From contig CBDDPY010000002.1 in the NCBI GenBank assembly GCA_965232515.1, positions 4,192,001 to 4,256,000 on the forward strand: DNA of 64,000 bases. Direction: 5' to 3'. The position numbers and the translations under genes were made by a program. Shown one piece after another: positions 6,066-24,981 of this stretch. The DNA is from Alphaproteobacteria bacterium (GTDB taxonomy: Bacteria > Pseudomonadota > Alphaproteobacteria > GCA-2731375). The notes below the pieces were generated by a model, which made no database searches, had not been told where the DNA came from, and saw only the letters and a program-made list of their open reading frames with translations. Position 1 is the stretch's first letter; every line of letters begins with the position of its first letter.

Positions 6066-6086
6066 ACGGCGGCGGGCGGCGACGGC

Positions 6087-7241: not shown

Positions 7242-7276
7242 CGTCCCGGCAAGACGGTTGCCGGTTGCCTGGACCA

Positions 7277-8485
7277 TCATCTCGGCGCCATCAGTCTCCG
7301 GATTGGGCGGACGACCTGCGGCAGAAGTGGCACCCGTCGCAACTCGCTTCGCAGCAACATCGCGGCCGCCTTCAACGGCCGCAGTCGCTTCGAACGCGCC
7401 ACACTCCGATCGATGGCGCGAACAATGTCATCGCGGCCGCGTTCCTGCGCCGCGTCACGAATCTCCAACGCGAAATCGACGTCGCTCTGATGCATCAGAT
7501 AGACGTTCGCCACGCGATCCAAACTGTAGTCGATCCAGTCGAACGATCTGCCCAGACGCCGCTTGTCCAGCAGATCGAGCGTCACCATTGTCCGCAGGCA
7601 TTTGCTGCATTGGCTGCAATTCGACGCGCTGCGAGAACGCCAGCACACGCGCAATGTGGCCGCCGCCTCGGGTTCTTCGCAGATCCGCGCCGTCTTTTCG
7701 ACACGCGTGGCGACGCCGCCATGATGAACGAACGCCATATGCGCCGAGCTGTATAGCGGGTCGGCCAGCGGATGCGATCCCCAGGGCGCCAGATGCCCGA
7801 AGTCATGCGTCGATCCGATCAGCATGGTCTTGAACTTGTTCGACAGCAGATGGCCGACGCATGCCAACGCCGCGCCATGTGTCAATTCACCCCACCAGCG
7901 CTGAAATCCAGGCAAATCGCGCAGATTTGTGGCAATCGGAATGAGCGCCTTGTCGAAATGCGCGGCCGTACGTTCGCCGATCGCGCATGCCTGGGCAAAC
8001 TCGTCCGGCGCCTCGAGCGGAATATCGAAGCCCCACATCATCACAAGGCTGGTCACATCGGCGCTGGCGGCATCGTCAACGCCGTCGTCCGCACCCAGCA
8101 ACGAGAAATAGCCATCGACGCCGCCACTGAAGAACAGGCCGGTTTCGGTGCCACGAATTGGATTGGGACACGCCTGTGTCTCGATGTCGACGGGCCGCGT
8201 CCACGGATACCAGCTGTGCCAGAGACGTTGCAGGCCCTTGAGATTGTAAAGAAGCGTCGGATCGACCGGGAGGTCGATGACGAGGTCCTCTTCCGCGCAT
8301 ATCGCCGCCGGCAAAAGCATGACCAGCCAGGGTTCGCCGCGGTCGTTGACACTGGCCTCCAGGCCGGTCGGCAAATCGAACCATATCGTCCGGGGCTGCT
8401 GACGTGCGAACGCGACCTCTGCTGAAATTCGAACGTGGCCGGAACCCGACGGCGATGGGCGCCGATCGACGGCAACGAGCTGCAC
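7277..8485 (-). CDS. Uncharacterised PP-loop (QueC-like) protein with C-terminal Cys cluster
   Basis: FFSGGVDG PP-loop, WGFDI, PWGSHP, LRVCW-x6-NCSQCSKCLRT; GTG start with GAGG RBS. Confidence 0.75.
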   Translation of the reverse strand: MQLVAVDRRPSPSGSGHVRISAEVAFARQQPRTIWFDLPTGLEASVNDRGEPWLVMLLPAAICAEEDLVIDLPVDPTLLYNLKGLQRLWHSWYPWTRPVDIETQACPNPIRGTETGLFFSGGVDGYFSLLGADDGVDDAASADVTSLVMMWGFDIPLEAPDEFAQACAIGERTAAHFDKALIPIATNLRDLPGFQRWWGELTHGAALACVGHLLSNKFKTMLIGSTHDFGHLAPWGSHPLADPLYSSAHMAFVHHGGVATRVEKTARICEEPEAAATLRVCWRSRSASNCSQCSKCLRTMVTLDLLDKRRLGRSFDWIDYSLDRVANVYLMHQSDVDFALEIRDAAQERGRDDIVRAIDRSVARSKRLRPLKAAAMLLRSELRRVPLLPQVVRPIRRLMAPR

Positions 8486-8653
8486 AATTCGACCTCGTGC
8501 AATTGCTCAAATTAGCGAATAGCAATGTAACTCATACGACCTAGTTCCTAAATTGGATTTAACAAGAAGGGGTATTGTCCGGCGGTCACACCTGGACGAT
8601 TGCGAGAGCATCACCGCGTCGACCCGCGTCGGCCTCGGCCGCAGAATCCGGAC

Positions 8654-9454
8654 TTAGTTTTTCGGCAGTTCGAAGTCGGGAAAATATCGCTGCAATAAAT
8701 CGTCGCAGTGCGTTCGCAGTTTTCGGCGAACGAAATCCGCATCCAATTCGGATATCAGATTCCGGTCCTTCCTGGTCGGATGGGAGTGCGACTTCGACGC
8801 GTTCAGCTTTTTCAGCGGGCTTCCGGTGAAGCCGGCGATTTGTTCGAGGCTTGCGGAAATTCGATCTGTTCTCAAGACCAGCAGCCTGTCGGGCGGCACC
8901 ACCGACAACACCCGCCGATTGTGCGCCGCCCAATAGGCGAAGTATCCATCGAGCGTGTAGAACCCGTGATCCTTAAGGATCTTCTCTTCGGCGGAATGAG
9001 TATGGATTTCCGGCTTGAATCTCAGCTCGCTCAATCGCAGCCAAGGATTGTCCGGCGGCGACGGGTTGTTGATGCGGTGGTTGACGAACGAGTTGACCCA
9101 GGAGTAGGGATCGCGGATCGTCAGAATGAACTTGGCCGCCTCGAAGCGGTCGACCAGCGTGTCGATGAAGAAGTAGTTCAGCTGGCTCGAATTCATCTCC
9201 AGATCGAGGCGTCGGTCGGTCGCCACGATAAAGTCGTCAAATGCCTGTCGGGTGATGCGGCCGTTTTCGAACGAGATGATGGCGTCGATCGCCGCCGCGG
9301 CGTCCGGCTCGTGCCCGGCGCGGTACCTCGTGGCGAACAGCTGGGCCAACGATACGGTTCCGGATTTCGCCGTGCCGACGCAATAGATCTGGAAACGCCG
9401 CTTGCGCCCGGGCAATCCGCGCCGGAGCGCCGGGCGCACGAGCTTCATCAGCAT
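8654..9454 (-). CDS. Sulfotransferase
   Basis: CVGTAKSGTVSL, KFILTIRDPYSWVNS, HNRRV..VPPDRLL. Confidence 0.85.
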   Translation of the reverse strand: MLMKLVRPALRRGLPGRKRRFQIYCVGTAKSGTVSLAQLFATRYRAGHEPDAAAAIDAIISFENGRITRQAFDDFIVATDRRLDLEMNSSQLNYFFIDTLVDRFEAAKFILTIRDPYSWVNSFVNHRINNPSPPDNPWLRLSELRFKPEIHTHSAEEKILKDHGFYTLDGYFAYWAAHNRRVLSVVPPDRLLVLRTDRISASLEQIAGFTGSPLKKLNASKSHSHPTRKDRNLISELDADFVRRKLRTHCDDLLQRYFPDFELPKN

Positions 9455-9640
9455 TGGAACGACACGTCCTACTCCCGATCCCGCCGGGGCGATGTGATCC
9501 GCCCGAGCGGGATCTCGACTGCGTCACGGCACCGCGAACGGTATCACAGCGGCCGAACGCTTCCAATTCGGCGGGCCCTGGTGGATAAAGTGCGACAGGT
9601 TCAAGCTGTCATCGACGCTCGGACGTGACGAAAAGCGCTT

Positions 9641-10648
9641 ATGAGTGAAAATCCGACACCGCCTCGCTACACGGCGCAGGCACAGGAGTTGAAAGACAAG
9701 CTGCTGCTCCTGAAAGACCTGATTCCGGTCGGTTCACCGATTTTCTATTTCGATTACGCGGTCTATTCGAATGTCGGCGATCTGCTTATCCACTATGCGA
9801 CACAGAAGTTTCTGGAAGATCACGGCTATGCGATACGAAGCTGGACGTCGCACCAGAACCTGACGCAACGGACGCTGGACTCGATCACCGACGACGCCAC
9901 CATCGTCTTCCAGGGCGGCGGCAATTTTGGCGACCTCTACAGCCTTCATCAGGACATGCGGCTGCGCGTGTTGTCGGCCAAACCCAACGTCCGGTCGGTC
10001 ATTCTGCCGCAAAGCATCTATTTCACGGACGAAGCAAAGACGCGGGAGACGGCACGCATCTTCGCGCGCTGCCGCGACCTGCATTTCGTGACGCGGGACC
10101 GTGTGTCGCTGGCGTTCGCACAGAAGCGCTTTTCCGCCAATCTCTACTGCCTGCCGGATATCGTGCATTATCTTTTTCAAGCCGACCGTCCCGCACCGAC
10201 GGCCGGCGGCACGCTGTATTTCGTCCGCCGCGACCACTTCCGAAGTCCGGATCAGGACCCGGCGGTTCAACATCTGTTGGCGGACGCGCAAGAGGCCGAT
10301 TTCGTCGACTGGTCCGATTTTCTGAGCCGGTCCGACAAACGGATCTTTCGACTTGCAGACCGGCTGCACCGGCTCGACCGGCTGGCCGGCAACCGCATGC
10401 CGGTGCATGCGGGCTGGCTGATCTACCGGGACCGGCTGGTCGACCGCGCGCTGTCGTTCTTCGCTCGACACGACGGTCTGATCACCAACCGCCTGCACGG
10501 CCTGCTGCTGGGACTTCTGTCGGGACACCGTATCTCGGTCTTCGACACGCAGTACGGAAAGCTGACGTCCTACTACGAGAGCTGGCTGTCCGATTTCCCC
10601 GATCTCGATCTGGTCGGCGCGCCGATCCACGAGGGCTATATGACCTGA
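9641..10648 (+). CDS. Polysaccharide pyruvyltransferase (EpsI/YvfF/ExoV-type)
   Basis: NVGDLLI, QGGGNFGDLY, LPQSIYF, TRD, TNRLHG, YGKL. Confidence 0.9.
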   Translation: MSENPTPPRYTAQAQELKDKLLLLKDLIPVGSPIFYFDYAVYSNVGDLLIHYATQKFLEDHGYAIRSWTSHQNLTQRTLDSITDDATIVFQGGGNFGDLYSLHQDMRLRVLSAKPNVRSVILPQSIYFTDEAKTRETARIFARCRDLHFVTRDRVSLAFAQKRFSANLYCLPDIVHYLFQADRPAPTAGGTLYFVRRDHFRSPDQDPAVQHLLADAQEADFVDWSDFLSRSDKRIFRLADRLHRLDRLAGNRMPVHAGWLIYRDRLVDRALSFFARHDGLITNRLHGLLLGLLSGHRISVFDTQYGKLTSYYESWLSDFPDLDLVGAPIHEGYMT

Positions 10649-10669
10649 GGCCGCCCCCTCTCGTGCCGC

Positions 10670-11815
10670 CTATCGGCCGGCCGGCCAGAGCCGGTTGAAG
10701 TCGTCGGCAACGGCAGCGGCTTCGGGCCGTCGCTTGCGCAGCAGGCGCCGGACCATCAGGCCCGCCGCCGCGGGCAGATAGCGCCAGCAACGGAGAACAA
10801 ACCGCACGGCCGAAAGCCGCCGCCGGGACAGTCCGCCCTTCAACAGCATCGTTTGAAACAGCAGGCGGGTCGCGTTCTGCCGGACGGCCAGGCGATCGGC
10901 ATTCGTCAGCGAGGCCGCATAACGACGGAAAAAGCCATCCAGCAACCCATCGACAGCCGCGCGACAGTCCTCCGCCTCGCCAAGCGTGATCGGTTGCGGA
11001 TTGTCGCCCCCATGAATCGCGACCAGGCGTGCGACGCCGAGACGATACGCGGCAAGATCCGGAAACAGTCTTTCCAGATATCCGTGCGCGATCGAGGTCG
11101 TCACCGCGAGCTGCATATCCCGCTTGGCGACACCGATCGCCGCCGAACCGCGATGCCACCGCAGCAGGGGTTCGCCGAGCCGAACGCCCCGGCCCCGATC
11201 GAGAATACGGACCCAAAGCTCGTGATCCTGGGCGATGGGAATGGTTTCGTCATAGCTCAGACCGGCATCGCGGACGAGTTCGCCGCGAAACATCACCGTG
11301 GGGTGGATGACCGGCGAATGGAGCAGCAACGTCCAGCGGAACTCGGCATCATCCATCGGCCGGTTCACGAACTCGACCACATTGCCCGACGGATCGACGG
11401 ATACATAGCCCGTCCCGGCCAGCACGACGTCCGGATGGGCATCCATGTAGGCGACCTGGCGCGCGAGGCGTTCGGGATGGGCGACATCGTCCGCATCGAT
11501 GCGCGCGATATAGCGCCCGCGCGTGGCCTTCAGGCCGACGTTGAGCGCTCTCGTGACCCCGAGATTCCGTGCATTGGTGATGACACGAACGCGGGCATCG
11601 GCAATTTCAGCGAGCAACGTCGACGTCGCGTCGGTCGAGCCGTCGTCGACAATGATGAATTCGAAGTCGGTGAAGCTCTGGGCGAGGATGCTCTCGACCG
11701 CCGTCAGTACATGCGCCTCGCCGTTGTGCACCGGCATCAGGACGCTGACCGATGGCACGGTCGCCTTGGCGCCGGTCGCGCCGTCGCGCATTGCACCGTC
11801 ACTGAGCGAATACAT
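10670..11815 (-). CDS. Glycosyltransferase family 2
   Basis: VSVLMPVHNGE, IVDDGSTD, ARIDADD, AQDHELW; closest to 3776..4849. Confidence 0.92.
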   Translation of the reverse strand: MYSLSDGAMRDGATGAKATVPSVSVLMPVHNGEAHVLTAVESILAQSFTDFEFIIVDDGSTDATSTLLAEIADARVRVITNARNLGVTRALNVGLKATRGRYIARIDADDVAHPERLARQVAYMDAHPDVVLAGTGYVSVDPSGNVVEFVNRPMDDAEFRWTLLLHSPVIHPTVMFRGELVRDAGLSYDETIPIAQDHELWVRILDRGRGVRLGEPLLRWHRGSAAIGVAKRDMQLAVTTSIAHGYLERLFPDLAAYRLGVARLVAIHGGDNPQPITLGEAEDCRAAVDGLLDGFFRRYAASLTNADRLAVRQNATRLLFQTMLLKGGLSRRRLSAVRFVLRCWRYLPAAAGLMVRRLLRKRRPEAAAVADDFNRLWPAGR

Positions 11816-11875
11816 GGCGGCACGTTATGCGGGGCTGATCCAGACAGCGTGTGAGCCCGGCCACAGGACCCCCCG

Positions 11876-12784
11876 TCACCCCTTGATGACGTTGGCCAGA
11901 TGCTTGAGCGAGGGGAGGTGGCCGGAGCGTTGGCGGCGCAAATGATAACGCGCGGGCTGGTAGAGCTGCTCGACGGAACGCACCTCGATGTCGCGTATCT
12001 CGTCGGCCTTCACGAAGAACGCATTTACCCCCGCCAGACCGCAACAGACGAGTTCGTAGCCGCGACCCTTCAGCAGCTCGACGAAACATTGCAACGAGGC
12101 GCCCTGATAATCGTCATCGTGCCACGCGTGCCGGTCATTGTAGTCGATAGTGATTTGCATCGGTGGCGGATACTTGGCGTTGTATTCGACGCAGACCACC
12201 CTGGCATCGAGACGCGTGAGCCGCTCCAGCACATAGACATCGTTGCCGTCGATATCGACCGACAGGAAATCGACCGCAAGCGGAAACGTCGTCTCGCCAA
12301 GCGATCGGAAGGCGTCCTCCAGAACGTCGTCGATATTGTCCCGATCGACAAAGGCGTTCGCGACCACCAGCTTGCGGCTGCGCAGGGGCAGGAACCGGGC
12401 GATGAAGTCGGTCTTCTTCTTCGATCCCTCGACCCAGACGCCGCGCCAGTCCTTGAGCAACAGCGCATGCGTGTTGTTCTCCAAACCATCGGAAGCGCCG
12501 ATCTCGCAGAACAGCTTCGACCTGGTGCCGATACGATCGAAGATCTCGGCGACGATACCGTCCTCGTCGTTTTGCGAGTAAATCTTGTGCCCGGACAGCA
12601 CCAGGGATTTGTCGTCTTGGGCGCGAACCCTCTCTTTCAGCCGGTCATATTCCTGCTCGATGGCGATCTGCAGGTTGACGTCCTCGATGATCTGCAGCGT
12701 GCCCTGCAGGACGAAGCGGAAGAATTTCTGCAGCGGTCGGAAGATACGCTTCAATACGTCGATCACGGCAATCACTTTCGGCAA
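11876..12784 (-). CDS. FkbM-like SAM methyltransferase/conserved hypothetical protein
   Basis: YSQNDEDGI, FCEIGASDG.ENNT, LSVDIDGND, VEYN, GVNAFFV. Confidence 0.72.
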   Translation of the reverse strand: MPKVIAVIDVLKRIFRPLQKFFRFVLQGTLQIIEDVNLQIAIEQEYDRLKERVRAQDDKSLVLSGHKIYSQNDEDGIVAEIFDRIGTRSKLFCEIGASDGLENNTHALLLKDWRGVWVEGSKKKTDFIARFLPLRSRKLVVANAFVDRDNIDDVLEDAFRSLGETTFPLAVDFLSVDIDGNDVYVLERLTRLDARVVCVEYNAKYPPPMQITIDYNDRHAWHDDDYQGASLQCFVELLKGRGYELVCCGLAGVNAFFVKADEIRDIEVRSVEQLYQPARYHLRRQRSGHLPSLKHLANVIKG

Positions 12785-12814
12785 TTTCGATCGGCAATAT
12801 GGCCCGACATCTGG

Positions 12815-13942
12815 TCAGCGACCAGCCGCGGCAGCGAGGAAGCGGGACGCGGGCTCGGCATAGGCATCGGGCGCGAAACGGGCCGAGATCGCCGGCGGCA
12901 CGCTGGCCGCGCGCAGGTCGCGGACCGCCGGCGACGACAGAAATCCGACCCAGTCATCGGCCTCGTCCAACCAGACGACGCCCTCGGTCCCGGGCAGGTC
13001 CAGGCCGCGTCCGGCGAAGCGGGTGGCGACGGTGGGCATGCCGTTGTAGAGCATCTCGGCAAACTTCACGTTGACCCCGGCGCCCGAGAAGATCGGACAG
13101 ATCATGATGTCGCAGGCGGCCCAGACGTCCCGGATCTCGGGCACGAAGCCGTGCCGGACGACACGGTCGTCGTCGAAGCGCATGGCCTCGCTGCCCTGGC
13201 CGAACAGATGCAGGCGCACGTTGCCGGGCAACCGTGGCAGCACCCGAACGACAAACCAGTCGAGCCCTTCGCGGTTCGGCCAATGGCTCCATTTCGACAG
13301 AAAACCGATATCCAGATCCAGCTTCGATGCCGGCGGCACGCGGCGGGCATGGGGCCGGTAGGCAAAGACCGGGGGCAGATGCAGCACGCGCGCGTCCGGC
13401 GCCTGATCGAGGATGTAGGCGCGGTCGTCGCTGGAAATGGTGATGATGCCGTCGGCGCGTCGAAAAACGCGATGCTCGAATTCGGCGAACTTGCCGACGT
13501 CGCGGTCATACCAGCGGCGGTAAAGCGCGTATTCGAGGCCCAGGTTTTCGACACTCAGCGCGTGCAGCCTGCTCTCGATGTTGTGGGATATGAGCACCAC
13601 CGGCGTTTCGGCCGCGAGCTCGTCGATAATCCAGGCCGCCGGCAGATAGTTGACGAGCACGAGGTCGATACCATCGCCGCGGATGTCGGCCCGCACCCGC
13701 TCGGCAAGAGACCGCGAACGATAATACGCCATCGACGCGGGCAGCGCGGGGTCCGCGCCAAGGGTCAGGCGATACAGGCGTTTCAGCTTGCGCAGACCGG
13801 CCGGCGCCTCGCCGCAGCCGAGATAGTCGATCCGAGCGTTGATGGGCGGCGCCCGCAACACGTCCAGCACGCCCTGCGAATAGGCCGCGCCACCGCCCTT
13901 CTGGCCGGCGAGATCGACTGTCGAAAGGCAGAGAATACGCAT
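12815..13942 (-). CDS. Glycosyltransferase family 4
   Basis: True start MRILCLS at 13942 (upstream part of the 785-aa ORF is antisense to the ASST gene); HNIE, WPNREGLDWF, CPIFSGAGVNVKFAE. Confidence 0.85.
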   Translation of the reverse strand: MRILCLSTVDLAGQKGGGAAYSQGVLDVLRAPPINARIDYLGCGEAPAGLRKLKRLYRLTLGADPALPASMAYYRSRSLAERVRADIRGDGIDLVLVNYLPAAWIIDELAAETPVVLISHNIESRLHALSVENLGLEYALYRRWYDRDVGKFAEFEHRVFRRADGIITISSDDRAYILDQAPDARVLHLPPVFAYRPHARRVPPASKLDLDIGFLSKWSHWPNREGLDWFVVRVLPRLPGNVRLHLFGQGSEAMRFDDDRVVRHGFVPEIRDVWAACDIMICPIFSGAGVNVKFAEMLYNGMPTVATRFAGRGLDLPGTEGVVWLDEADDWVGFLSSPAVRDLRAASVPPAISARFAPDAYAEPASRFLAAAAGR

Positions 13943-14329
13943 GCCGAGCACATCCGCCAGCGGATCGAGACACCCTTGGCAAGCCGGCGGACGCCGCCGC
14001 GCCGGGAGGCCGAAAGCCCTGCATAACCGCTTTCGGCGGCACGCGCCAGACCCGCCGGAGCGGGAATAGCGGGTCGCCGTCAGATCAATTTGTGAGATCC
14101 GTGACGCGATGTTGTCACAGTACGGACGCGCAATATCGCGTTCTAATTCACGACATTGACAGGAAAGCCGGGCAGGTCGGCGGTCGAGCGCGCGTGACGT
14201 CTGATCTGGTCGAGGCGGCGTGCCGCCGGACGACGCACCGACGATCGTGCCCGACACGCGTAGGACGCCCGGCTCGACAGTCCCCGTCACGATGACGACC
14301 GGTGCGGACGTCCGGAGAGGGAGACGTGG

Positions 14330-15736
14330 ATGATGGCTGACCGGTTGGCGCGGCTGGCGTTCTGGCTCTCGCTGTGTGTCGCCGCCTTCGCTTATGGCGT
14401 CGCCGTCGTCGGCTTCCAGATCTTTCCCTATGCGTTCGTCCGATCGACGTTCGTTACGCTTGGCGAGATAAAGCAACACGTCACCGCGAAGAATGTCGGC
14501 GCGTTTCTGAAATTCTCTGACATCGAACGGCTGAACGCGGCGTCCGAACGCATTCAGCCGGTGCGTGACGCCGAGACCGACGATGGCTTTCTGTTCTTCG
14601 GCGGCCAGTTTCAGTTCATGGAGCACTGCCCCGAACGGGGCTGCCTCGCGGTCATCTATTCGCGGTCCGGCGAACTGGTCGAGGCCTATCCCTACCGGCC
14701 GCGCGACATCTTCGAGAGCAACGAAGCGACCGGCTTTCCCTACGAGACGATCTTTTTCGACTTCAGCCGGCATTCCAATCCGCTGGGCATCGAACGCTAT
14801 GCCAACGGCGACCTGCTGGCGGTGTTCCAGGGCCAATTCGTCTTTCCGTTCGGCACCGGCGTCGCGCGCGTCGACCGGGACGGCCGCCCCGTCTGGTTCC
14901 GCTGGGACTACAGCCACCACTGGCCGACGCTGAATGCCGACGAGCAGGCGATCGTGCCCGGTACGCAGATCGGCGACGCGCCCGTGGCCGTGAAGATGCC
15001 GGGCTGGGGCTTCCGCCTGCAATGCAAGAGCGGGCATCCCTATCGCGACACGCTGAAGGTCCTCGATCCCGACGGCGAGATGCGCCGCGAGATATTCGTG
15101 CTGGACGCGCTGCTGGCCTCGCCTTACCGCGCCGTGCTGAAGCAGTCGACGGATCCCTGCGATCCGACGCACCTGAACTATGCGCAGCAGGTGTCGGACG
15201 ACCTTGCCGCCAACATCGACGGCGTCGCGGCCGGCGACTTCCTGGTCTCGCTACGGAACATCAGCGCCTTCGGCTTCATCGACGGCGCGGACGGGCGCCT
15301 GAAACGCCTGGTGCGCGGCACCTTCATCCAGCAGCACAGCGTGCAGCACCTGCGGGGCACCCAGTTCCTGATGTTTGACAACCTGGGCGCCGACGCCGAG
15401 GGCGGCCCGTCGCGGCTGCTGCTGGTCGACCTGTCGAGCGGCGCCGAGACGACGATTTTCCCAAACGCGCGCACGCCCGAGGCATTCCGGTCCATGTTCT
15501 CGGCAACCGGCGGACACGTCACGGTGTCGCCGGACCGCCGACGCGCGATCATCGCCTATACGCGCGCCGGCAAGGCGTTCGAGATCCGCCTGTCGGACGG
15601 CGCCGTCCTGACCGCGTTCAACAATCTTCACGACGTCGCCAGGGTCGACGAACTGTCGGACAAACGCGCGCAGTTTGCCGCCGTCTTCCGCACCTACGGC
15701 ATCGATTACGTCCAGATGAGGAGACAAGTGCAATGA
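14330..15736 (+). CDS. Arylsulfotransferase (ASST)-like beta-propeller protein, N-terminally membrane-anchored
   Basis: N-terminal TM; SHH, THLN, SLRN and QQH segments match the ASST His/His-x-Asn/Arg/His catalytic pattern; FDN motif; GGAGAGGGAG RBS. Confidence 0.75.
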   Translation: MMADRLARLAFWLSLCVAAFAYGVAVVGFQIFPYAFVRSTFVTLGEIKQHVTAKNVGAFLKFSDIERLNAASERIQPVRDAETDDGFLFFGGQFQFMEHCPERGCLAVIYSRSGELVEAYPYRPRDIFESNEATGFPYETIFFDFSRHSNPLGIERYANGDLLAVFQGQFVFPFGTGVARVDRDGRPVWFRWDYSHHWPTLNADEQAIVPGTQIGDAPVAVKMPGWGFRLQCKSGHPYRDTLKVLDPDGEMRREIFVLDALLASPYRAVLKQSTDPCDPTHLNYAQQVSDDLAANIDGVAAGDFLVSLRNISAFGFIDGADGRLKRLVRGTFIQQHSVQHLRGTQFLMFDNLGADAEGGPSRLLLVDLSSGAETTIFPNARTPEAFRSMFSATGGHVTVSPDRRRAIIAYTRAGKAFEIRLSDGAVLTAFNNLHDVARVDELSDKRAQFAAVFRTYGIDYVQMRRQVQ

Positions 15737-16343: not shown

Positions 16344-17428
16344 GCTTCGCCCACGGCTTCTCCGGCCTCGACCGGTTTCTGCACCGGCTGGCGTTCAACG
16401 GCACCGGTTTGCAGATGGCGGTGGCGGATATCGAGGACCGGCTCTATGCCGGGCGCTACGCCGAGATCGCCGTCGACCGGCCGGTCTTCGTTACCTCGCT
16501 GCCGCGCGCCGGCACGACGCTGCTGCTGGAAGTGCTGGCGGCTCACCCTGACTTCGCGACGCATACCTATCGCGAGATGCCGTTCGTGCTCTGCCCGCTA
16601 ATGTGGCATGCGGTGTCGCGGTCGTTTCGACAGGCCGGCGGCGCGCGCGAACGCGCGCACGGCGACGGCATGACCGTGGACTACGACAGCGTCGAGGCCT
16701 TCGAGGAAATTCTCTGGCGCGCGTTCTGGCCGAAAAAATATGCCGCCGACCGGATCGCGCTTTGGGACGGGGACGACATCGCGGCCGACGATGAGTTCGG
16801 CCCGTTCCTCGCCAACCATATCCGCAAGCTGATCGCGCTCAGGCGACGGGACGGCCTTGCGCCCAGCCGCTATGCATCGAAGAACAACGCCAACATCGCC
16901 CGGCTGCCGGCGCTGGCGCGGCTGTTCCCCGACGCGGTGATCCTGATCCCGTTCCGCAATCCCGTCGACCATGCCGGTTCGATGCTGCGTCAGCACCGGA
17001 ACTTCACGAAGATCCACGGCGAGGACGCCTTCGCCCGACGCTACATGCAGGGCATCGGGCATCTGGAGTTCGGCGAGGCGCTGTGCCCGATCGACTTCGG
17101 CGGCTGGCTGGACCGGAGCGACCTGGCGCCGGCGGACAGTGCGGACTACTGGCTGGCCTATTGGTGCGCGGCCTTCGAGCACGTGCTGGAGGCGCGGCCG
17201 GCCGGCGCGCATCTCGTGAGCTACGACGCCACTTGCCGGGCCGCCACGGGCGCGCTCGGCAGGATCGCCGATGAAATCGGGCTCGACGACCCGGCGCCTC
17301 TAATGTGCCAGGCCTGCAGGTTCCGGCCGCCGGTTGGTTATGACGCCGGCGACCTGGGCGGCAGCCGGGCGCTCGTCGAACGGGCCTTTGCCATCCATGA
17401 TCGGTTGCGCGACGCCGCCATCGGCTAG
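16340..17428 (+). CDS. Sulfotransferase
   Basis: PVFVTSLPRAGTTLL, RAHGDG, YASKNN, FRNPVDHA.S; ATG 16340 overlaps the previous TGA. Confidence 0.85.
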   Translation: MSFAHGFSGLDRFLHRLAFNGTGLQMAVADIEDRLYAGRYAEIAVDRPVFVTSLPRAGTTLLLEVLAAHPDFATHTYREMPFVLCPLMWHAVSRSFRQAGGARERAHGDGMTVDYDSVEAFEEILWRAFWPKKYAADRIALWDGDDIAADDEFGPFLANHIRKLIALRRRDGLAPSRYASKNNANIARLPALARLFPDAVILIPFRNPVDHAGSMLRQHRNFTKIHGEDAFARRYMQGIGHLEFGEALCPIDFGGWLDRSDLAPADSADYWLAYWCAAFEHVLEARPAGAHLVSYDATCRAATGALGRIADEIGLDDPAPLMCQACRFRPPVGYDAGDLGGSRALVERAFAIHDRLRDAAIG

Positions 17429-17686
17429 CCGGACTTTCTCGCCCCCATCATCCTCAAACCATCTGACGTCAAGTCCGGACGCTAGAACAAACGGCTGACT
17501 TACCCAACAAATACGCCAGATTTCGCCCGAAGCCGTGGTGTGAAATAGATCATTCCGCGAATAAGTGGAAAGAAATAATACTGAATCGATTCACTTTGTT
17601 CGCGAATTTGTTACACATTCATCACATACATCTTTACCTGAAACAGAGATACTTTTGCAATAGTAACGAACACTGTAAGTTGTAAA

Positions 17687-18793
17687 ATGACGAGTAACAT
17701 CTCCCAACTCAACGGCGCAACAGCCGCCAGCAAGTCATTGCCTCTTCAGGCTGGCGCGCAATATCCATCGCTCCTGCCCCGGCAACTTAAGGTCTGGTTG
17801 CCGTATGTGCATACCGGCAGCGGCAGTGATGTCTATACCGAGCGGCTGGCCGCTGGATTGCAGGCGGCGGGCCACGAGGCCGTGCTGACGCCCGTGGACC
17901 GGCGCTGGCAATATCTGCCCTGGCGCTACATGTCGGTGCCAGAGCCGATCGATGCCGATATTACGGTCGCAAATCTAGATGCCGGATTCGCCTTCCGGCG
18001 CCCTGGCACCAAACTGGTCCTGGTCGATCATCACTGCGTCTTCGATCCGGCCTTCGCGCCTTATCGCAGCCGCAAGCAGGCGTTGGTGCACGAAACGTTG
18101 CTGCGGCACATAGATCGGAAAAGCCTGAGTGTCTGCGACGCCCTGGTGGCCGTGAGCGCCTATACGGCACGCAGCCTGCAGGCCGCGCTGGGCGGACCGG
18201 CGGCGTCGGTGATCTTGAACGGTATCGAGACGGATTACTTCAAGCCGGCCGAACCGCCACGTCGGCGCGCGCCCGACCAACCCTTCGGCCTGCTGTTCGT
18301 CGGCAATCTGAGCCGACGCAAGGGCGCCGATATGCTGCCGGCAATCATGGCGCGGCTGGGGCCGGGCTTCGAGTTGCGGTACACGCTGGGCTTGCGCTCG
18401 GACGATCCATTCGCGGATGTCGCCGGCATGCGCAAGTTGGGCCGGCTATCTCAAGACGAGTTGCTGGCGGCCTATCGGGAGGCCGACCTGTTGCTGTTTC
18501 CGTCGCGCCTCGAGGGATTTGGCTATGCCGCGGCCGAAGCCATGGCCTGCGGCACGCCGGCCGTCGTCGCAGACAGCTCGGCCCTGCCAGAGTTGATTGA
18601 CGACGGCGTTGATGGAGTGCTCTGCCCGGTCGATGACATCGATGCATTCGTCGACGCCGTCAAAAAGCTGGCCGCCGACCCGGACAGGCTGACGGACATG
18701 GGCCGCCGAGCGCGGGTGAAGGCCGTCGACAAGTTCAGCCTCGGCGCCATGACGTCGCAATACGTGAACCTGTTCGAACGGCTGTTGCGCTAA
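17687..18793 (+). CDS. Glycosyltransferase family 4
   Basis: ILNGIE, VGNLSRRKG, EGFGYAAAEAMACGTP; start position uncertain. Confidence 0.9.
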   Translation: MTSNISQLNGATAASKSLPLQAGAQYPSLLPRQLKVWLPYVHTGSGSDVYTERLAAGLQAAGHEAVLTPVDRRWQYLPWRYMSVPEPIDADITVANLDAGFAFRRPGTKLVLVDHHCVFDPAFAPYRSRKQALVHETLLRHIDRKSLSVCDALVAVSAYTARSLQAALGGPAASVILNGIETDYFKPAEPPRRRAPDQPFGLLFVGNLSRRKGADMLPAIMARLGPGFELRYTLGLRSDDPFADVAGMRKLGRLSQDELLAAYREADLLLFPSRLEGFGYAAAEAMACGTPAVVADSSALPELIDDGVDGVLCPVDDIDAFVDAVKKLAADPDRLTDMGRRARVKAVDKFSLGAMTSQYVNLFERLLR

Positions 18794-19119
18794 CCCGGGT
18801 ATCTGACCCCATCGCAGACTGCGCGGCGTCGCCGCCCTCAATCGCAGTCGCAATACGCGTTTCGGCCCGCTGGCGACGGATCTGACGCCCGCGCACCACA
18901 TTTACGGCAAAAATGGGCGATGCCGCAGATGCCGCATCGCCGTGCAGCGGGCGTCCAGATATTGCCCACGCGCCGTATCGCGGATTAACCGCCGCGGAAC
19001 CGAACTCAGAGTAGTGTCGACCATGATCCGGTGGTAAGCATTCAGGCAGCGTCATTCCGGCAACCCGGCGGCAGACCGGCAACTTCCCCGGCTTCTTATC
19101 GCCCCAGTCGAGTTCCAGC

Positions 19120-20451
19120 ATGATCGAACGAGTACGTCGCCGGCTACGCGGTGAGATCGCGCGAGGCGCAGTCGGCACCTTCGGGCTTAAGGGCGTTCAA
19201 ACCGGCCTGATGTTTGTGATCAGCCTGCTGCTCGCGCGACTGCTCGGCGCGGAGGGCTATGGCGCCTACTCCTTCGCGATGTCATGGGCGATGCTGCTGC
19301 TTGTGCCCGCCCTGTTCGGCACTCAGCCGCTTCTTATCCGGTCGATGGCCACCTACCGAAGCACGCAAGAATGGGGCTCGCTCAAAGGAATCCTGAGTTG
19401 GTCCAAGCAATGGGTGCTGGTGGCGTCGCTCGTCATAACAGGCGCAGCATCGCTGACCTTCTGGATCATCGCCGACCGTCTTGAGCCGGGACTGGCGATA
19501 ACCACCGTTGTCGCTTTGGCAATGGTGCCGCTGACGGCGCGGCAGCGTGTCCTGCAAGCGGCAATGCAAGGACTTCAGCATGTCGTCAAAAGCCAGGTTC
19601 CGGAGATGCTCATTCGGCCGACGCTGTTTGCCTTGCTCCTGGCCGTTGGATTTTCGTTCGCCGGCGATTGGATGTCTGCGTCCGTGGCGGCCGCTCTTCG
19701 AACGGCCGCGGCGGCCGTCGCGCTCGTTGTGACCGTTGTCGCCTATCGGCGGGTTTTACCCGCTGACATCCACAACGTCCCGGCGCGGCAGAGGGGGAAG
19801 ACCTGGATAACTACAGCGCTGCCGCTTCTCTGGATCAACGGGATCACCGTGTTCAATGCCCAGATCGGCATTATCCTGGTGGGTATCCTGAAAGGCGTCG
19901 AGTTTACCGGGATCTACAACATCGCTTTCGTGATTTCCGGCTTAATCGGCTTCGCCTTGGTGTCCATAAATGCACCGTTGGGCCCAATGAGCTCGAGGCT
20001 TCACGCCGAGGACAATCTGACGAAGCTTCAGAGCCTGACCACCAAGGGAGCCCGTACCGCTTTCCTGATTGCGGCCGTGCTGACGATTGCTTTTGCCATT
20101 GCCGGTAAGTGGCTGCTGTCGATCGTCGGACCGGAGTTCGTCTCCGGCTACGACGCGCTGCTGGTACTGGCGATCGGACAAATTGTCGTCGCGGGCCTGG
20201 GCTCGGCAGGCGTTCTGCTTGTCATGACCGGCGATCAGGACGGCGTCGCCATCGTCGGTACGGTCGGAATGGCGGTGAGTTTCTCGCTCTATATGCTGCT
20301 GATCCCCCGCTACGGGATCGACGGCGCGGCGATGGCCGCCGTGTCCGGCAGCTGCTTTACCGCCACGATACTTTGCTTTCGCCTGCATCGCCGCCTTGGC
20401 ATCGACTCGACCGTCCTCGGCTTTTATCGCCGCCATCTGCACAGGGCGTAA
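19120..20451 (+). CDS. Wzx-like oligosaccharide flippase (MOP/PST family)
   Basis: About 12 TM; LARLLGAEGYGAYS, GIYNIA, LIPRYGIDGAAMA. Confidence 0.88.
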   Translation: MIERVRRRLRGEIARGAVGTFGLKGVQTGLMFVISLLLARLLGAEGYGAYSFAMSWAMLLLVPALFGTQPLLIRSMATYRSTQEWGSLKGILSWSKQWVLVASLVITGAASLTFWIIADRLEPGLAITTVVALAMVPLTARQRVLQAAMQGLQHVVKSQVPEMLIRPTLFALLLAVGFSFAGDWMSASVAAALRTAAAAVALVVTVVAYRRVLPADIHNVPARQRGKTWITTALPLLWINGITVFNAQIGIILVGILKGVEFTGIYNIAFVISGLIGFALVSINAPLGPMSSRLHAEDNLTKLQSLTTKGARTAFLIAAVLTIAFAIAGKWLLSIVGPEFVSGYDALLVLAIGQIVVAGLGSAGVLLVMTGDQDGVAIVGTVGMAVSFSLYMLLIPRYGIDGAAMAAVSGSCFTATILCFRLHRRLGIDSTVLGFYRRHLHRA

Positions 20452-20567
20452 TCAAGAGTCCAAACGACACGGAAATGCCGACGCATGGATCAAGTCTTGA
20501 CCGGAACAGCGACAGATCTGGTTTGAACGACATATCTGCATGCTAAACCTTAGGGCGTCATACAATT

Positions 20568-21530
20568 ATGCAGAAAAATTCCGCTATAAAATATTTATCC
20601 GACAAACTGAACTCTACGCTTTCGAGCGCCATCTCAAATAATGAAAAGATATTCTATTTCGATTATCCGGTACATGAGAATCTGGGCGATTTATTGATAT
20701 ATCTCGGGACCGTCCGCTGGTTCGAAAAAGTAGAACTCGAAGTTGGCGGAAGTTGGAACTACAAGAACTTCACCTACCCGGAATTACCTAAGAGTCATAC
20801 AATTGTTTGCCATGGCGGCGGCAATTTCGGCGATCTATACGCCTATCAGAATTTTCGCGAGTCGTTGGTAACGTCCTATCCAGACAACAAAATCGTCATG
20901 CTCCCTCAAAGTCTGCATTTCGAAAAACCCGAGAACCTGGCGAAGACATCAGAGATATTGAACGCCCACCGTGATCTGCATTTGTTTTTCCGGGACACGG
21001 AAAGCCTGGACATCGCTCGCAGCCGCTTCGAGGCCCGCACCATCGACCTTGCGCCGGATATGGCATACTTCCTCCAGGATGATCTCGGCGCAATCCGGTC
21101 GGGCGACGGCGGCGCGCGGCGGTACAAGACCGTCTACCTGCTTCGCAAGGACATAGAAGCATCGGGCCAAACCATCGAACCGGATCCCGAACGATCATGG
21201 ACGGGCGACTGGGATGACGCGCTCGGGGGCTACGTGCCGTTCATCCGCGCGATCAGAAGAGTCAACGGCCGCCTCGGAAAGCACATGCCGGCCGGCTTGT
21301 TCGAGCGCGCCTGGCGCGCGACCGCCTGGCGTTTGGCGCTGAGATCCGCCGGATTGTTCAGGGATGCGGAAAGAGTTGTCACGTCAAGACTTCACGGTCA
21401 TATTCTGGCAAACTTGATGGGCGTGCCAAATATGTTGATAGATAACAGCTATGGAAAAAACAGAAAATATTTTGAAACTTGGCACAAAAACATGAATTTG
21501 GGCGAGTTATACGAACGAAAAAATCAATAG
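20568..21530 (+). CDS. Polysaccharide pyruvyltransferase, paralogue of 9641..10648
   Basis: NLGDLLI, HGGGNFGDLY, LPQSLHF, APDMA, TSRLHGHI, DNSYGKN. Confidence 0.9.
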   Translation: MQKNSAIKYLSDKLNSTLSSAISNNEKIFYFDYPVHENLGDLLIYLGTVRWFEKVELEVGGSWNYKNFTYPELPKSHTIVCHGGGNFGDLYAYQNFRESLVTSYPDNKIVMLPQSLHFEKPENLAKTSEILNAHRDLHLFFRDTESLDIARSRFEARTIDLAPDMAYFLQDDLGAIRSGDGGARRYKTVYLLRKDIEASGQTIEPDPERSWTGDWDDALGGYVPFIRAIRRVNGRLGKHMPAGLFERAWRATAWRLALRSAGLFRDAERVVTSRLHGHILANLMGVPNMLIDNSYGKNRKYFETWHKNMNLGELYERKNQ

Positions 21531-21603
21531 AAACAGAAATCGAAAGCCAAAATAACCGCGAACAACATCAATATCCTGCACATGGGCCGCGCCGCGTGGA
21601 AAA

Positions 21604-22314
21604 ATGATCAAAGAGTTAATACGAAAATCCCGGCGTCGTTATCTTTACATGATGTTGCCGCGTATCGCCAAGAACGTCCTGAAAGACAAACTCACATATC
21701 TTTCACCGGCGAAGTTCCACAGCCTTTATTCGACGCTGGACAGCGTGCAGCAGAAAAACGTGGCCGGGGATTTTCTGGAGTTCGGCATCGCGTTGGGCGG
21801 TTCGGCCATCTGTCTCGCATCGGCGCTGGACGGCGACAGACGCTTTCACGGATATGACGTCTTCGACACTATACCGCCGCCAAGCGATCGGGACGACGAC
21901 GATTCGAAAACGCGCTACGACCAGATTCAGGCGGGAAAATCAGAGGGCATCAAAGGCGATCGCTATTACGGCTACGAGGACGATCTCTTCCTCAAGGTCA
22001 GCGACAACTTTCGGAAGTTCGGCCTGTCCGTCGACGGCGAACGGATCGTCCTTCACAAGGGACTGTTTCAGAATACGGTGCGCTTCGCCGACGACGACCG
22101 GATCGCCCTCGCGCACATCGATTGCGACTGGCACGATCCCGTCGCCTTTTGCCTGGACGCGGTATCGGCAAAACTCAGCGCCGGCGGCTTTATGATTATC
22201 GACGACTACAACGACTATCGAGGCTGCAAAACGGCGACCGACAAATTCGTCGAAACGAATGCCGGGTTCGACCTCATCAAAACCGAGCCTCATGCCGTGA
22301 TTCGCAAACGCTAG
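21604..22314 (+). CDS. TylF/MycF/NovP-family O-methyltransferase
   Basis: GDFLEFGIALGGS, YDVF, HKGLF, AHIDCDWH, IDDY. Confidence 0.88.
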   Translation: MIKELIRKSRRRYLYMMLPRIAKNVLKDKLTYLSPAKFHSLYSTLDSVQQKNVAGDFLEFGIALGGSAICLASALDGDRRFHGYDVFDTIPPPSDRDDDDSKTRYDQIQAGKSEGIKGDRYYGYEDDLFLKVSDNFRKFGLSVDGERIVLHKGLFQNTVRFADDDRIALAHIDCDWHDPVAFCLDAVSAKLSAGGFMIIDDYNDYRGCKTATDKFVETNAGFDLIKTEPHAVIRKR

Positions 22315-22652
22315 AGTGACGTCACCAGCCTCTGCGACCGTTCGACCGATGCCCGCGAATTAGACCGATCTGGCGAGCCAGCGACGCCGCACGGCCATGC
22401 ACCGCATGACGCCCGACGTCGAACCGACCGAGCATGGCCGGAAAAACCGTTGGGCGAAAAAGTGTGGACCGGGTTATGTCTAAACGGGTCTAGTGTTTGA
22501 GTGAACTGTATTTCAAGCAATGGCAGATCACCGGCTGTAAGGCGTGTTCTGGCGCTGGAGAAGGAATGCAATCAGCTTGACGGAGGAAGGACATAGTTCT
22601 TTGGCCGAATTATAGGGCCGGCCGCTAACTTTCGATCAACCGACTTCGGGGC

Positions 22653-23594
22653 ATGGATATGAATTTATTGTTGGGTCGCATAGCAAATCTGGTACTCGTT
22701 CTACCCATTCAACACTCAAGGTTATTAAAATGGATGCTTCTTTCCTTATCCAGGCGTGTATTCAGACAAGTTGTAGATCCCTATAGCGCGCTTAAGGCCA
22801 ACTTTATTGAAGACGGTGATCGATCGACGTTCGATCGTGACGTTCGCATGGAAATCGTGAAGCGATTTGAGGCAATCGACAGAGGTGTCAACGTTGCATC
22901 GAATCCTTCAGACGGCTTGTTTCTGGCTCAAGCCATGTTGTCCCTTGATGGTCCTGGCTCGGTGATTGAGTGTGGATGCTTCGCCGGAGGCAGCACGGCC
23001 AAGCTCTCAATTCTTGCAAAGCTGACCGGGCGAGAACTTGTTGTATTCGATAGCTTCGAGGGATTGCCCGAGGTCGACTCATGGAACGAGGACGATCTGC
23101 ACGTCCGTCAGGGGAGCGAAACCGGGTCAAAATGGAAAAGCGGGGAATACAACGCGACGCTCGAACATGTGTCGGGGAATGTGAAGAAATTCGGCGAGAT
23201 CGAGGCATGTCGTTTCGTTCGGGGTTGGTTCAGCGATACGCTTATTGAAGAGAACCTACCGAACCAGATTGCATTTGCATTTACGGATGTTGACCTCGTC
23301 TCTTCCGCCCGCGATTGCTTGTTGGCGATTTGGCCGCGTCTTTCGGACGGCGCCGTCTATTTTACGCATGACGTAGCTTTCCTCAAAGTTTTGCAAGCAC
23401 TTACAGATCCCGAGGTCTGGCAGTCCTTCCGCGAGCCGCAGCCCGTTATTTTTGGCGCAGGCTACGGGCTCAGCGATGCCTCCCCCCATTTGGGCATGAT
23501 GATCAAGGGTGACCTGACGCCGGATTACCTTGAAAAGATCACCCTGAAGGTTTTTACCCACACAGTGGCGTTTGAGAAGCATGTGAACGGTTAG
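22653..23594 (+). CDS. TylF/MycF/NovP-family O-methyltransferase
   Basis: GSVIECGCFAGGS, FDSFEGLP, GWFSDTL, FTDVDL, FTHD. Confidence 0.85.
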   Translation: MDMNLLLGRIANLVLVLPIQHSRLLKWMLLSLSRRVFRQVVDPYSALKANFIEDGDRSTFDRDVRMEIVKRFEAIDRGVNVASNPSDGLFLAQAMLSLDGPGSVIECGCFAGGSTAKLSILAKLTGRELVVFDSFEGLPEVDSWNEDDLHVRQGSETGSKWKSGEYNATLEHVSGNVKKFGEIEACRFVRGWFSDTLIEENLPNQIAFAFTDVDLVSSARDCLLAIWPRLSDGAVYFTHDVAFLKVLQALTDPEVWQSFREPQPVIFGAGYGLSDASPHLGMMIKGDLTPDYLEKITLKVFTHTVAFEKHVNG

Positions 23595-23699
23595 CGCGCG
23601 GACCGCATGTCACCGAAATGCAAGCGTTCACCGGCGTGGGCAGCGTGCCAAAGCCGATCCGGACCGGCCACTTGCCGGCGTCACATGGGCAATCGCATG

Positions 23700-24911
23700 T
23701 CAGCGCCTCGATCGAACGGCGAAACGAACCAGCCGGCGGGCAATACGTCTTAGCGGACCGATAAACCTGTATTTCAACAACAACAGTCGGACCCGCCTGA
23801 ACGCTGGCGCGGACCGGCCATGCGCCTTTGCGTGATCAAGCAGCGACCGCAGCTCTTGGGCCTGGGCGTCCTGCCTGATCTTTATGCGGCTCAGGTCACG
23901 AATATCGAGCGCCGTTTCAAAGCACGGCGCTTCCTGGGCGCCAGCAGCGAGGAAATTCAGTTGCGTGCGCAGGCATTTTTCGCACTTGCCGCAATTTCGG
24001 TCCTGTCGTTTTCCCTCCCAGCAGACCTTGAGACTTCGGCAGGCCTGTTCATCCCGAAGCAACTGTTCGATCTTGTCCGTCCGTGAGAACCCGGCGCCGT
24101 CGTGGACGATGGTAAAGTTGTCTCCGGATAGCAGGTGGTCGGTGGCAGGATTCGAGCCCCATGGGAGGACCAACCCGTCATAGGGTTCTGAACTGCCCGC
24201 CAAACCGAATTCGTAGGCGTGCGCGTACTGATGGAGGCAGGCCGACAATTGCGGCAGAAATGAATCTTCCCACTTCTGCAGCCCTAGCTCTTTTATGTTT
24301 GTGCGAACGACGTGAAGCTCGAGACCCAACCTGTCAATGAGCGGCTCGCAGCGTTTGACTAACGATCTGAAGTCGCTGGCGTTGTCCAACTCGACGTCGA
24401 AGCCATGCACAACCAGCACGGCTGCAAGGTCGTAGGACTGGTTGCCAAGCCATCGACGGGCATGCCGCAGGGCCGTAAACGTTCCGTCGACGCCCCCAGA
24501 AAACGCCGAGATCGCCGTTCGGCTTCGGCGTTCGGGACTCGGATCGACGATTGCGTCGGGGACAACGTCAATCGGCTGATAGACATCCGGACGCCACATA
24601 TGCCAGGCGGCCTGGAACTCGGCGAGGTTCTGCATCGCGCGACGCGACATGGGTCCCCGCACCCGTAATGTGCGCGCCTGTCGCATGGCGTGCAGCACGA
24701 TGCCGAAGACGAAACCATCCAGCACCAGCGGTTCCGGTGCGTCTGGCATGTCAAAGCACTCGAAGTCGATATCCACCCGCCCGCCCGCATTGACGGCACT
24801 CGGGCCTTCGAGCGTCATGCGACGAACGGTTGTCCGTTCGCGCTGCGATTGGGAAACATGCAATGTCAGATCTTGCAACGGCGACTCCACGCTAAACGAT
24901 TGGCACGCCAC
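23700..24911 (-). CDS. Uncharacterised PP-loop (QueC-like) protein, paralogue of 7277..8485
   Basis: AFSGGVDG, HGFDV, PWGSNP, LKVCW-x6-NCGKCEKCLRT; start position uncertain. Confidence 0.75.
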   Translation of the reverse strand: MACQSFSVESPLQDLTLHVSQSQRERTTVRRMTLEGPSAVNAGGRVDIDFECFDMPDAPEPLVLDGFVFGIVLHAMRQARTLRVRGPMSRRAMQNLAEFQAAWHMWRPDVYQPIDVVPDAIVDPSPERRSRTAISAFSGGVDGTFTALRHARRWLGNQSYDLAAVLVVHGFDVELDNASDFRSLVKRCEPLIDRLGLELHVVRTNIKELGLQKWEDSFLPQLSACLHQYAHAYEFGLAGSSEPYDGLVLPWGSNPATDHLLSGDNFTIVHDGAGFSRTDKIEQLLRDEQACRSLKVCWEGKRQDRNCGKCEKCLRTQLNFLAAGAQEAPCFETALDIRDLSRIKIRQDAQAQELRSLLDHAKAHGRSAPAFRRVRLLLLKYRFIGPLRRIARRLVRFAVRSRR

Positions 24912-24981
24912 AGCGGCTCGTGAACAGGAAGAATGCCAGAGGTAAGAACCGGTCGGGCATCCGCCTGCCGCTATGGCGCTC

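Follow-up and report, generated by a model that had tools for sequence, protein, structure and literature searches.

Two related genes, here called FAM1 and FAM2, lie within a polysaccharide biosynthesis locus of an alphaproteobacterium (GTDB lineage GCA-2731375). The DNA analyzed, hereafter the window, is a stretch of 64,000 nucleotides from assembly GCA_965232515.1 (contig CBDDPY010000002.1, positions 4,192,001 to 4,256,000, forward strand), and positions below are counted from its first letter. Both genes encode predicted PP-loop ATP-pyrophosphatases of a large family whose members frequently neighbor, and are occasionally fused to, polysaccharide ketal-pyruvyl transferases. An earlier note had recognized the pair as QueC-like enzymes with a zinc-type cysteine motif and had proposed that they modify a polysaccharide. 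The genes and their principal motifs are as follows.

7277..8485, minus strand: FAM1 (P0001), stop-free open reading frame (ORF) of 402 residues; predicted PP-loop ATP-pyrophosphatase, QatC/QueC-like; P0001-type branch of the family
8111..8128, minus strand: P-loop SGGVDG of FAM1, residues 120-125
7589..7654, minus strand: Cys4 (zinc-type) motif LRVCW-x6-NCSQCSKCLRT of FAM1, residues 278-299; spacing between the first and second cysteines, 8
23700..24911, minus strand: FAM2 (P0002), stop-free ORF of 403 residues; second paralogue; P0002-type branch
24483..24500, minus strand: P-loop SGGVDG of FAM2, residues 138-143
23964..24032, minus strand: Cys4 motif LKVCW-x7-NCGKCEKCLRT of FAM2, residues 294-316; spacing between the first and second cysteines, 9

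Both ORFs were recovered as the earlier note had them, on the minus strand, free of stops and 402 and 403 residues long, and every motif it named was found in both proteins; beyond the P-loop and cysteine motifs these are WGFD in FAM1 and HGFD in FAM2, PWGS in both, and TRVEK and SRTDK, respectively. Some details needed adjustment. The six-residue spacer between VCW and NC holds for FAM1, with seven residues in FAM2, and the spacing of the QueC-like C-x8-CxxCxxC site is likewise that of FAM1, the corresponding value in FAM2 being 9. SGGVDG, which had been singled out as unusual, is present in both proteins and is an ordinary family variant: G closes the P-loop in 32 of 336 family members having both motifs, against S in 255 and A in 49. 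Spacing between the first two cysteines varies in the same 336 proteins, at 8 in 183 and 9 in 132.

Judged by sequence, FAM1 and FAM2 are paralogues, with a likeness far beyond chance (30% identity across 274 residues, E 6e-33, BLASTP). The database gene call for FAM2 (P0123, 372 residues) begins at Met32, 31 residues later than the long ORF; the longer ORF is the better call, since the family profile matches it already from residue 15.

The family, its predicted fold and its relatives

Among the candidates scored, 547 homologues were found for FAM1 and 882 for FAM2, nearly all annotated as "hypothetical" and a few labelled DUF6395. A profile built from 40 members matched 9,720 representatives of 50%-identity clusters at E<=0.001 and 4,952 at 1e-30. 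FAM1 and FAM2 fall in two deep branches, the P0001-type and the P0002-type. The four cysteines are invariant in both family alignments (40 and 25 members), as is F-S-G-G-x-D or nearly so, and neither alignment contains a conserved cysteine beyond the zinc-type four or a three-cysteine cluster motif. Further invariant positions in the 40-member alignment are G-F after strand 2, T-N after strand 3, the P-W-G-S region and an R...K pair, and the cysteine block reads C...N-C-x-x-C-x-K-C-x-R-T. Family members also carry an extra N-terminal domain of about 100-125 residues and a C-terminal tail that is strongly basic and partly hydrophobic; across 40 family sequences the median net charge is +7 over the final 35 residues and -3.5 over the remainder.

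Existing annotation resources say little about these proteins. Pfam gave no hit above threshold for FAM1 or FAM2, and the sub-threshold ones all lie on the cysteine-rich stretch. DUF6395 (PF19932), a domain of no assigned function, is the sole Pfam model touching both, scoring 20.5 and 16.8 bits where the cut-off is 25; it covers about 45 residues of the cysteine-rich C-terminal region and leaves the PP-loop module outside. Several relatives 45-54% identical to FAM2 carry a precomputed DUF6395 domain. The QueC model (PF06508) reached 14.3 bits on FAM2 against a cut-off of 22, on the cysteine motif only, and gave no hit on FAM1. Neither protein came near any NCBIfam cut-off (the QatC model NF041925 scored 10.7 bits versus 280), no PADLOC family matched at E up to 1, and sequence searches of the PDB with a single protein and with the family profile returned chance-level matches only (E 0.2 or worse). 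The ESM Atlas yielded "hypothetical" clusters and one DUF6395 cluster, nothing else. Literature searches, which did not extend to subscription journals, found no work on DUF6395 and none joining pyruvyl transferases with QueC or PP-loop enzymes. The consulted sections of a 2026 survey of PF06508 (PMC13329287) make no mention of polysaccharide, pyruvyl or glycosyltransferase and do not cover this family.

Structural prediction gives a clearer picture. AlphaFold2 models of FAM1 and FAM2 have predicted local distance difference test (pLDDT) scores of 89.6 and 91.5 and predicted template modelling (pTM) scores of 0.86 and 0.90, respectively. Two rankings were made, one by a search of PDB representatives and one by re-alignment of the top 1,000 Foldseek chains. 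The representatives search placed QueC first for the FAM2 core (about residues 99-297 of the 372-residue form; Z 14.2, 174 aligned, root-mean-square deviation (rmsd) 3.2) and Cap9 at Z 13.2, with LarE, ThiI, TilS, MnmA, TtuA and NAD synthetases next at Z 8-10. Over the full length, the best match for FAM2 is QatC (9y02_B; Z 16.4, 291 aligned, rmsd 4.3, model residues 1-346), as it is for FAM1 (Z 13.4, 292 aligned, rmsd 4.6, model residues 1-368); VIA-align alignments of FAM1 and FAM2 covered QatC residues 6-457. QueC (3bl5 best) scored Z 14.5 and 14.0 for FAM2 and 11.7 and 11.4 for FAM1, and Cap9 13.2 and 11.0, respectively. All matches at Z 8 or above in the wide PDB search are PP-loop-type enzymes, and the models share a Rossmann-like alpha/beta/alpha core with QueC, LarE, TilS, MnmA and NAD synthetase. 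Both proteins are thus predicted, on these models, to fold as PP-loop ATP-pyrophosphatases with QatC, QueC and Cap9 at the top of the list, which answers in the affirmative the question of fold that the earlier note had raised.

Because QatC ranks first over the whole length, the family can be assigned the QatC architecture of N-terminal extension, QueC-type core, Cys4 site and C-terminal extension, in a protein of about 400 residues, although the QatC C-terminal extension is shared in part only. The Qat operon consists of qatA (KAP NTPase), qatB, the QueC-family gene qatC and qatD (TatD nuclease); a Pfam scan of 29 ORFs found no qatA, qatB or qatD-like neighbors in the window. QatC (PDB 9y01 and 9y02) differs further in belonging to an anti-phage defense system (QatABCD), whereas the context here is glycan synthesis, and in sharing only about 10% sequence identity with the window proteins. 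The first two cysteines of QatC are 19 residues apart, versus 8-9 in the family (PMC13329287, sections consulted).

Likeness to QueC extends over the PP-loop core, the SGGxD[S/A/G] loop and a C-x8/9-C-x2-C-x2-C-x-R motif with an aromatic residue after the first cysteine; the zinc motif of QueC itself is given as C(x)8CxxCxxC in the sections consulted of PMC13329287. The same source names YxQxHxxE, VPxRN and YPDC as substrate and catalytic motifs of QueC. Among 348 family members they occur 1, 0 and 0 times, respectively, and the window proteins have none of them, whereas 4 of 4 canonical QueC controls from related genomes carry the complete set. The extra N-terminal domain and the basic C-terminal tail are further differences. 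An hhalign comparison of the family with the four canonical QueC proteins aligned the P-loop alone (24 columns, probability 14.8%), so residue-level equivalence of the QueC motifs was drawn from their order along the fold.

Two other comparisons are instructive. Cap9 of type IV CBASS (a cyclic-oligonucleotide-based anti-phage system; PDB 9nto) shares the core fold and, in the published account as consulted, is an ATP-dependent ligase making an amide from a carboxylate; it has about 185 residues, keeps the QueC substrate motifs and modifies a protein N-terminus, whereas the present family is twice that size, lacks the motifs and occurs in glycan loci. Members of the AsnB superfamily, both the beta-lactam synthetase type without the cysteine and glycan amidotransferases, likewise use a PP-loop to adenylate a carboxylate before amide formation, but belong to another branch of the superfamily, with a structural Z of only about 6 and no zinc site.

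The source genome (7.39 Mb, 96% complete) bears on what substrate could be available. The earlier note had remarked that no queuosine genes lie nearby; none for queuosine or 7-deazaguanine occur in the window, and the observation extends to the genome, where neither a canonical QueC nor a QueD was found. TGT is present. De novo supply of 7-carboxy-7-deazaguanine is unlikely in this genome because it shows no canonical QueC or QueD.

Contigs assembled from four RNA-seq libraries, all belonging to one study, span 6000-25999, including the locus and both FAM genes, at 95-99% identity, and a close relative of this organism was therefore present in those samples. Transcription is possible, as is carry-over of DNA, and strand and level are unreadable from contigs.

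Linkage to ketal-pyruvyl transferases

The two window genes lie among glycosyltransferases and each is near a pyruvyl transferase (1.2 kb for FAM1 and PYR1, 2.2 kb for FAM2 and PYR2), in agreement with the earlier note.

684..31745: enclosing glycan locus (Pfam scan of 29 ORFs)
9641..10648, plus strand: PYR1, polysaccharide ketal-pyruvyl transferase (PF04230; Pfam 9.9e-30, 104.8 bits), 1.2 kb from FAM1
20568..21530, plus strand: PYR2, polysaccharide ketal-pyruvyl transferase (PF04230; Pfam 3.6e-26, 93.1 bits), 2.2 kb from FAM2

Two family genes and two PF04230 genes are the genome's full complement of each, and the window contains all four. Such a two-to-two co-occurrence is unlikely by chance, because an evenly drawn phylum sample of 401 genomes holds only 117 PF04230 matches, in 88 genomes. 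The family itself is present in eight genomes of that sample, five of which have PF04230. PYR1 and PYR2 are 32% identical; in BLAST comparisons with pyruvyl transferases of other loci both match the same set at 27-34% identity, and no pairing with FAM1 or FAM2 was decided.

Linkage in relatives was surveyed in two collections. One comprises 80 loci taken from species-representative genomes in order of their likeness to FAM2 and spanning Pseudomonadota, Acidobacteriota, Cyanobacteriota, Actinomycetota, Chloroflexota, Planctomycetota, Nitrospirota, Desulfobacterota and others; the second comprises 79 metagenome loci ranked by likeness to FAM1, many on contigs of 1-3 kb. Pyruvyl transferases were scored in the available flank of each locus (for the genome loci, 41 by local hidden Markov model (HMM) and one more by Pfam). 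They flank 42 of the 80 genome loci, on the same strand in 40 and within 300 nt in 16, and 27 of the 79 metagenome loci, on the same strand in 25 and abutting in 23; for metagenome loci of at least 8 kb the count is 13 of 33. Pyruvyl transferase is the commonest neighbor in the genome loci, ahead of GT2 glycosyltransferases (34/80), Wzt ABC-transporter ATPases with a Wzt_C domain (21) and GT4 glycosyltransferases (15). On the family tree, the link appears in all P0002-type clades except one actinomycete clade, and also in the P0001-type branch.

By a reading of their neighbors, about 50 of the 80 genome loci are clearly glycan loci. The earlier note had asked whether homologues are enriched in such loci; they are, in roughly half to two thirds of cases, and are linked specifically to pyruvyl transferases, with enrichment judged only against the genome-wide frequency of PF04230 and against other neighbor families in the same loci.

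A common arrangement is Wzm-Wzt-(AsnB-like)-FAM-(TylF)-pyruvyl transferase-GT2 (for example, loci L005, L006, L010, L018, L029, L059 and L077), and the trio of family gene, TylF and pyruvyl transferase recurs in L003, L005, L010, L022 and L048. Fusions carry the association further. Sixteen of the 150 best representatives are at least 488 residues long, and five of these (P0247, P0299, P0316, P0365 and P0371) carry PF04230 C-terminal to the PP-loop module; a GT2 domain occurs in one and a methyltransferase domain in one. In eight of the sixteen the family profile aligns twice, at separate stretches, as would be expected if the PP-loop module were present in tandem.

A second recurrent partner is an AsnB-like protein of about 600 residues, whose gene is the nearest upstream neighbor of the family gene in 28 of 80 loci (L005, L010, L020, L024, L058 and others). 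It scores 63.6 bits on the asparagine synthase model versus a cut-off of 267. "MANF..." is the start of most of the 31 AsnB-like ORFs, and a cysteine at position 2, where AsnB has its glutaminase cysteine, is seen in none of them. Two different, putatively adenylating PP-loop enzymes thus travel together, often just behind Wzm/Wzt exporter genes. A local HMM did not find this AsnB-like partner in the window.

Proposed function and alternatives

The predicted fold, the conserved P-loop and cysteine motifs, and the linkage and fusion described above together make it quite likely that these proteins are adenylating glycan-tailoring enzymes that work with ketal-pyruvyl transferases. In QueC, Cap9 and AsnB-type PP-loop enzymes, adenylation of a carboxylate precedes its transfer to ammonia or an amine (PMC13329287 and PMC13279940, each in the sections consulted), and ketal-pyruvyl transferases use phosphoenolpyruvate on lipid-diphosphate-linked intermediates (PMC6801904, likewise). 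By analogy, the carboxylate adenylated may be that of the pyruvate ketal itself, with amide formation from ammonia or an amine to follow, a specific proposal whose prospects we regard as evenly balanced.

Such a reaction sequence would begin at the cytoplasmic face of the membrane, where the pyruvyl transferase would use phosphoenolpyruvate to place a 1-carboxyethylidene group (a pyruvate ketal) on the lipid-diphosphate-linked repeat unit. The PP-loop enzyme could then adenylate the ketal carboxylate, converting ATP to acyl-AMP and pyrophosphate, and ammonia or another amine would displace AMP to leave an amide, removing the negative charge. FAM1 and FAM2 are probably soluble, membrane-peripheral proteins, and the basic C-terminal tail would hold the enzyme at the membrane. 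Because the locus contains two enzyme/transferase pairs (enzymes 30% identical, transferases 32%), two modifications could be expected, on two different pyruvylated residues, beside sulfation and methylation.

More broadly, the family may install an undescribed covalent modification of pyruvylated polysaccharides, widespread across many phyla, in the form of an amide, of a conjugate with an amino acid or amine or, in the most extreme case, of a nitrile from the full two-step QueC-type reaction; here too the case for and the case against seem to us of similar weight. Pyruvate ketals provide much of the negative charge of capsules, exopolysaccharides, O-antigens and cell-wall polymers, and serve as sites of protein anchoring and recognition. 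Rewriting of their carboxylates, if it occurs, would alter charge, antigenicity, recognition by phages and lectins, and polymer rheology, and would account for structural features possibly lost in acid-based analytical work-ups. It would also give a third job, glycan tailoring, to a scaffold known in nucleobase synthesis and in protein modification during phage defense. In many genomes the family genes lie directly behind Wzm/Wzt exporter genes, the usual place of genes for chain-end capping enzymes. Given the size of the family (9,720 clusters), resolution of one family pair could annotate thousands of genes.

Several observations weigh against a partnership with pyruvyl transferases, or at least against its generality. 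Within the window, FAM1 and FAM2 are on the strand opposite PYR1 and PYR2 and are therefore not co-transcribed with them. No PF04230 match occurs anywhere in three of the eight family genomes of the phylum sample; the two genes are within 3 kb of one another in a single genome (G000), and 13 and 16 kb apart in two others. As 4 of the 117 PF04230 matches fall within 20 kb of a family gene, pyruvylation itself does not need the family enzyme. The available flank contains no pyruvyl transferase in 38 of 80 genome loci and 52 of 79 metagenome loci, many of them on short contigs; the link is frequent, not obligatory. A Streptomyces/Kitasatospora clade of eight loci (L027, L031, L037, L039, L044, L045, L061 and L071) has a conserved non-glycan context, with a major facilitator superfamily (MFS) transporter, an AMP-binding enzyme, an MmyB-like regulator, a glyoxalase and an AhpC-like protein as neighbors and no pyruvyl transferase, and may put the same scaffold to another use. 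Some twenty more loci either stand as orphans amid housekeeping genes or are too short to be assessed. The AsnB-like protein without the cysteine, as a second putative adenylating enzyme beside the family gene in 28 of 80 loci, makes the division of roles ambiguous. Finally, no glycan with an amidated pyruvate ketal turned up in our searches, and the consulted part of a 2019 review of pyruvate substitutions (PMC6801904) is without any mention of amidation.

Some of these observations would suit an enzyme that tailors a different group on the glycan, amidating the carboxylate of a uronic or other sugar acid or converting an N-acetyl carbonyl to an acetamidino group, with the pyruvyl transferase as a fellow traveller. 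PP-loop N-acetyl-sugar amidotransferases are said to form acetamidino groups. A pyruvyl transferase is missing from the available flank in about half of the loci, and from three of eight family genomes altogether, and glycan loci without one do exist (L021, L023, L051, L064 and L073). A mere fellow traveller, however, would hardly be expected in five natural fusions to PF04230, in 39 abutting same-strand pairs across the genome and metagenome sets, in a two-to-two gene count in the source genome, or beside the family more often than GT2. No amidotransferase model appeared among the NCBIfam and Pfam matches to FAM1 or FAM2 at E up to 1, a negative limited to the models that those libraries contain. 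We consider this alternative unlikely. The frequent abutment to one particular protein could instead be read as the mark of protein modification in the manner of QatC or Cap9, in which a carboxylate (for example, a deazaguanine acid) would be ligated to the N-terminus of the partner and so regulate glycan synthesis. Yet the pyruvyl transferase domain is C-terminal in five of five fusions and thus has no free N-terminus, the N-termini of linked pyruvyl transferases are not conserved in their alignment consensus, and the genome is without the canonical QueC and QueD for making 7-carboxy-7-deazaguanine. The negative PADLOC search, the QatC score of 10.7 bits versus 280 and the absence of qatA, qatB and qatD-like neighbors from the window point the same way, and we regard such a role as improbable.

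The chemistry could also depart from simple amidation. QueC takes its own substrate from carboxylate to amide to nitrile (PMC13329287 and PMC13279940, sections consulted), and the full reaction on a sugar-borne acid, at a cost of two ATP, would yield a cyano-bearing ketal. The core fold and zinc motif are closest to those of QueC, the nitrile synthetase ArtA is among the structural matches (Z 8.1-8.4), and the cysteine-less AsnB-like partner of 28 of 80 loci could divide the two steps. Against this outcome, which seems to us very improbable, stand the missing QueC catalytic and substrate motifs and the lack of an AsnB-like partner in the window; we also know of no nitrile-bearing polysaccharide. 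Least probable of all, and only barely worth entertaining, is sulfur insertion of the LarE, TtuA or ThiI type to give a thiocarboxylate or thio-sugar. LarE, MnmA, ThiI and TtuA do match, at Z 8.6-10.4, and the window locus is rich in sulfotransferases; these scores are nevertheless well below those of QatC, QueC and Cap9, and the sole conserved cysteines are the four in the QueC zinc-site arrangement, with no extra catalytic cysteine or three-cysteine cluster. Elsewhere, sulfotransferases accompany the family only occasionally (L041, L051 and L054).

Other features of the locus and window

Three further genes adjoin those discussed above.

8654..9454, minus strand: sulfotransferase (Sulfotransfer_4; Pfam 5.3e-12), between FAM1 and PYR1, on the strand of FAM1
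21604..22314, plus strand: TylF-family S-adenosylmethionine (SAM) methyltransferase (Pfam TylF 6.4e-27), between PYR2 and FAM2
22653..23594, plus strand: second TylF-family methyltransferase (Pfam TylF 3.8e-17), adjoining FAM2

The glycan locus as a whole encodes five Pfam sulfotransferase-family proteins and one arylsulfotransferase-like ORF, five GT4 and two GT2 glycosyltransferases, a Wzx-type flippase (19120-20451), the two TylF methyltransferases and one further methyltransferase-domain protein. The density of sulfotransferases is unusual, with all five Pfam-family ORFs and the arylsulfotransferase-like one falling within 17 kb (684-17428), and points to a polysaccharide that is heavily sulfated. 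Two ORFs, 12815-15172 (minus strand) and 14330-15736 (plus strand), overlap by about 840 nt; the GT4 domain is in the C-terminal half of the minus-strand ORF and the arylsulfotransferase-like region is in the plus-strand ORF. The glycosyltransferase gene in 12815-15172 probably starts at an internal codon. Two other proteins encoded inside the locus, at 2714-4876 (plus strand, 720 residues) and 11876-12784 (minus strand, 302 residues), have no Pfam or NCBIfam match.

Beyond the glycan locus, a 1,924-residue ORF at 33942-39716 (minus strand; 70-74% GC) combines an N-terminal AAA_22/STAND-like NTPase with tetratricopeptide (TPR) repeats and cadherin-like/Big_9 domains. A tRNA scan of the 64-kb window found none. 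The region 40731-63678, with a lower GC content of 53-60%, is probably an integrated mobile element. It encodes three tyrosine recombinases (40731-42020, 56314-58260 and 58257-59279) along with an AAA_25 protein, an SNase, an SRAP peptidase and a non-specific endonuclease, and many of its ORFs fall in no family.

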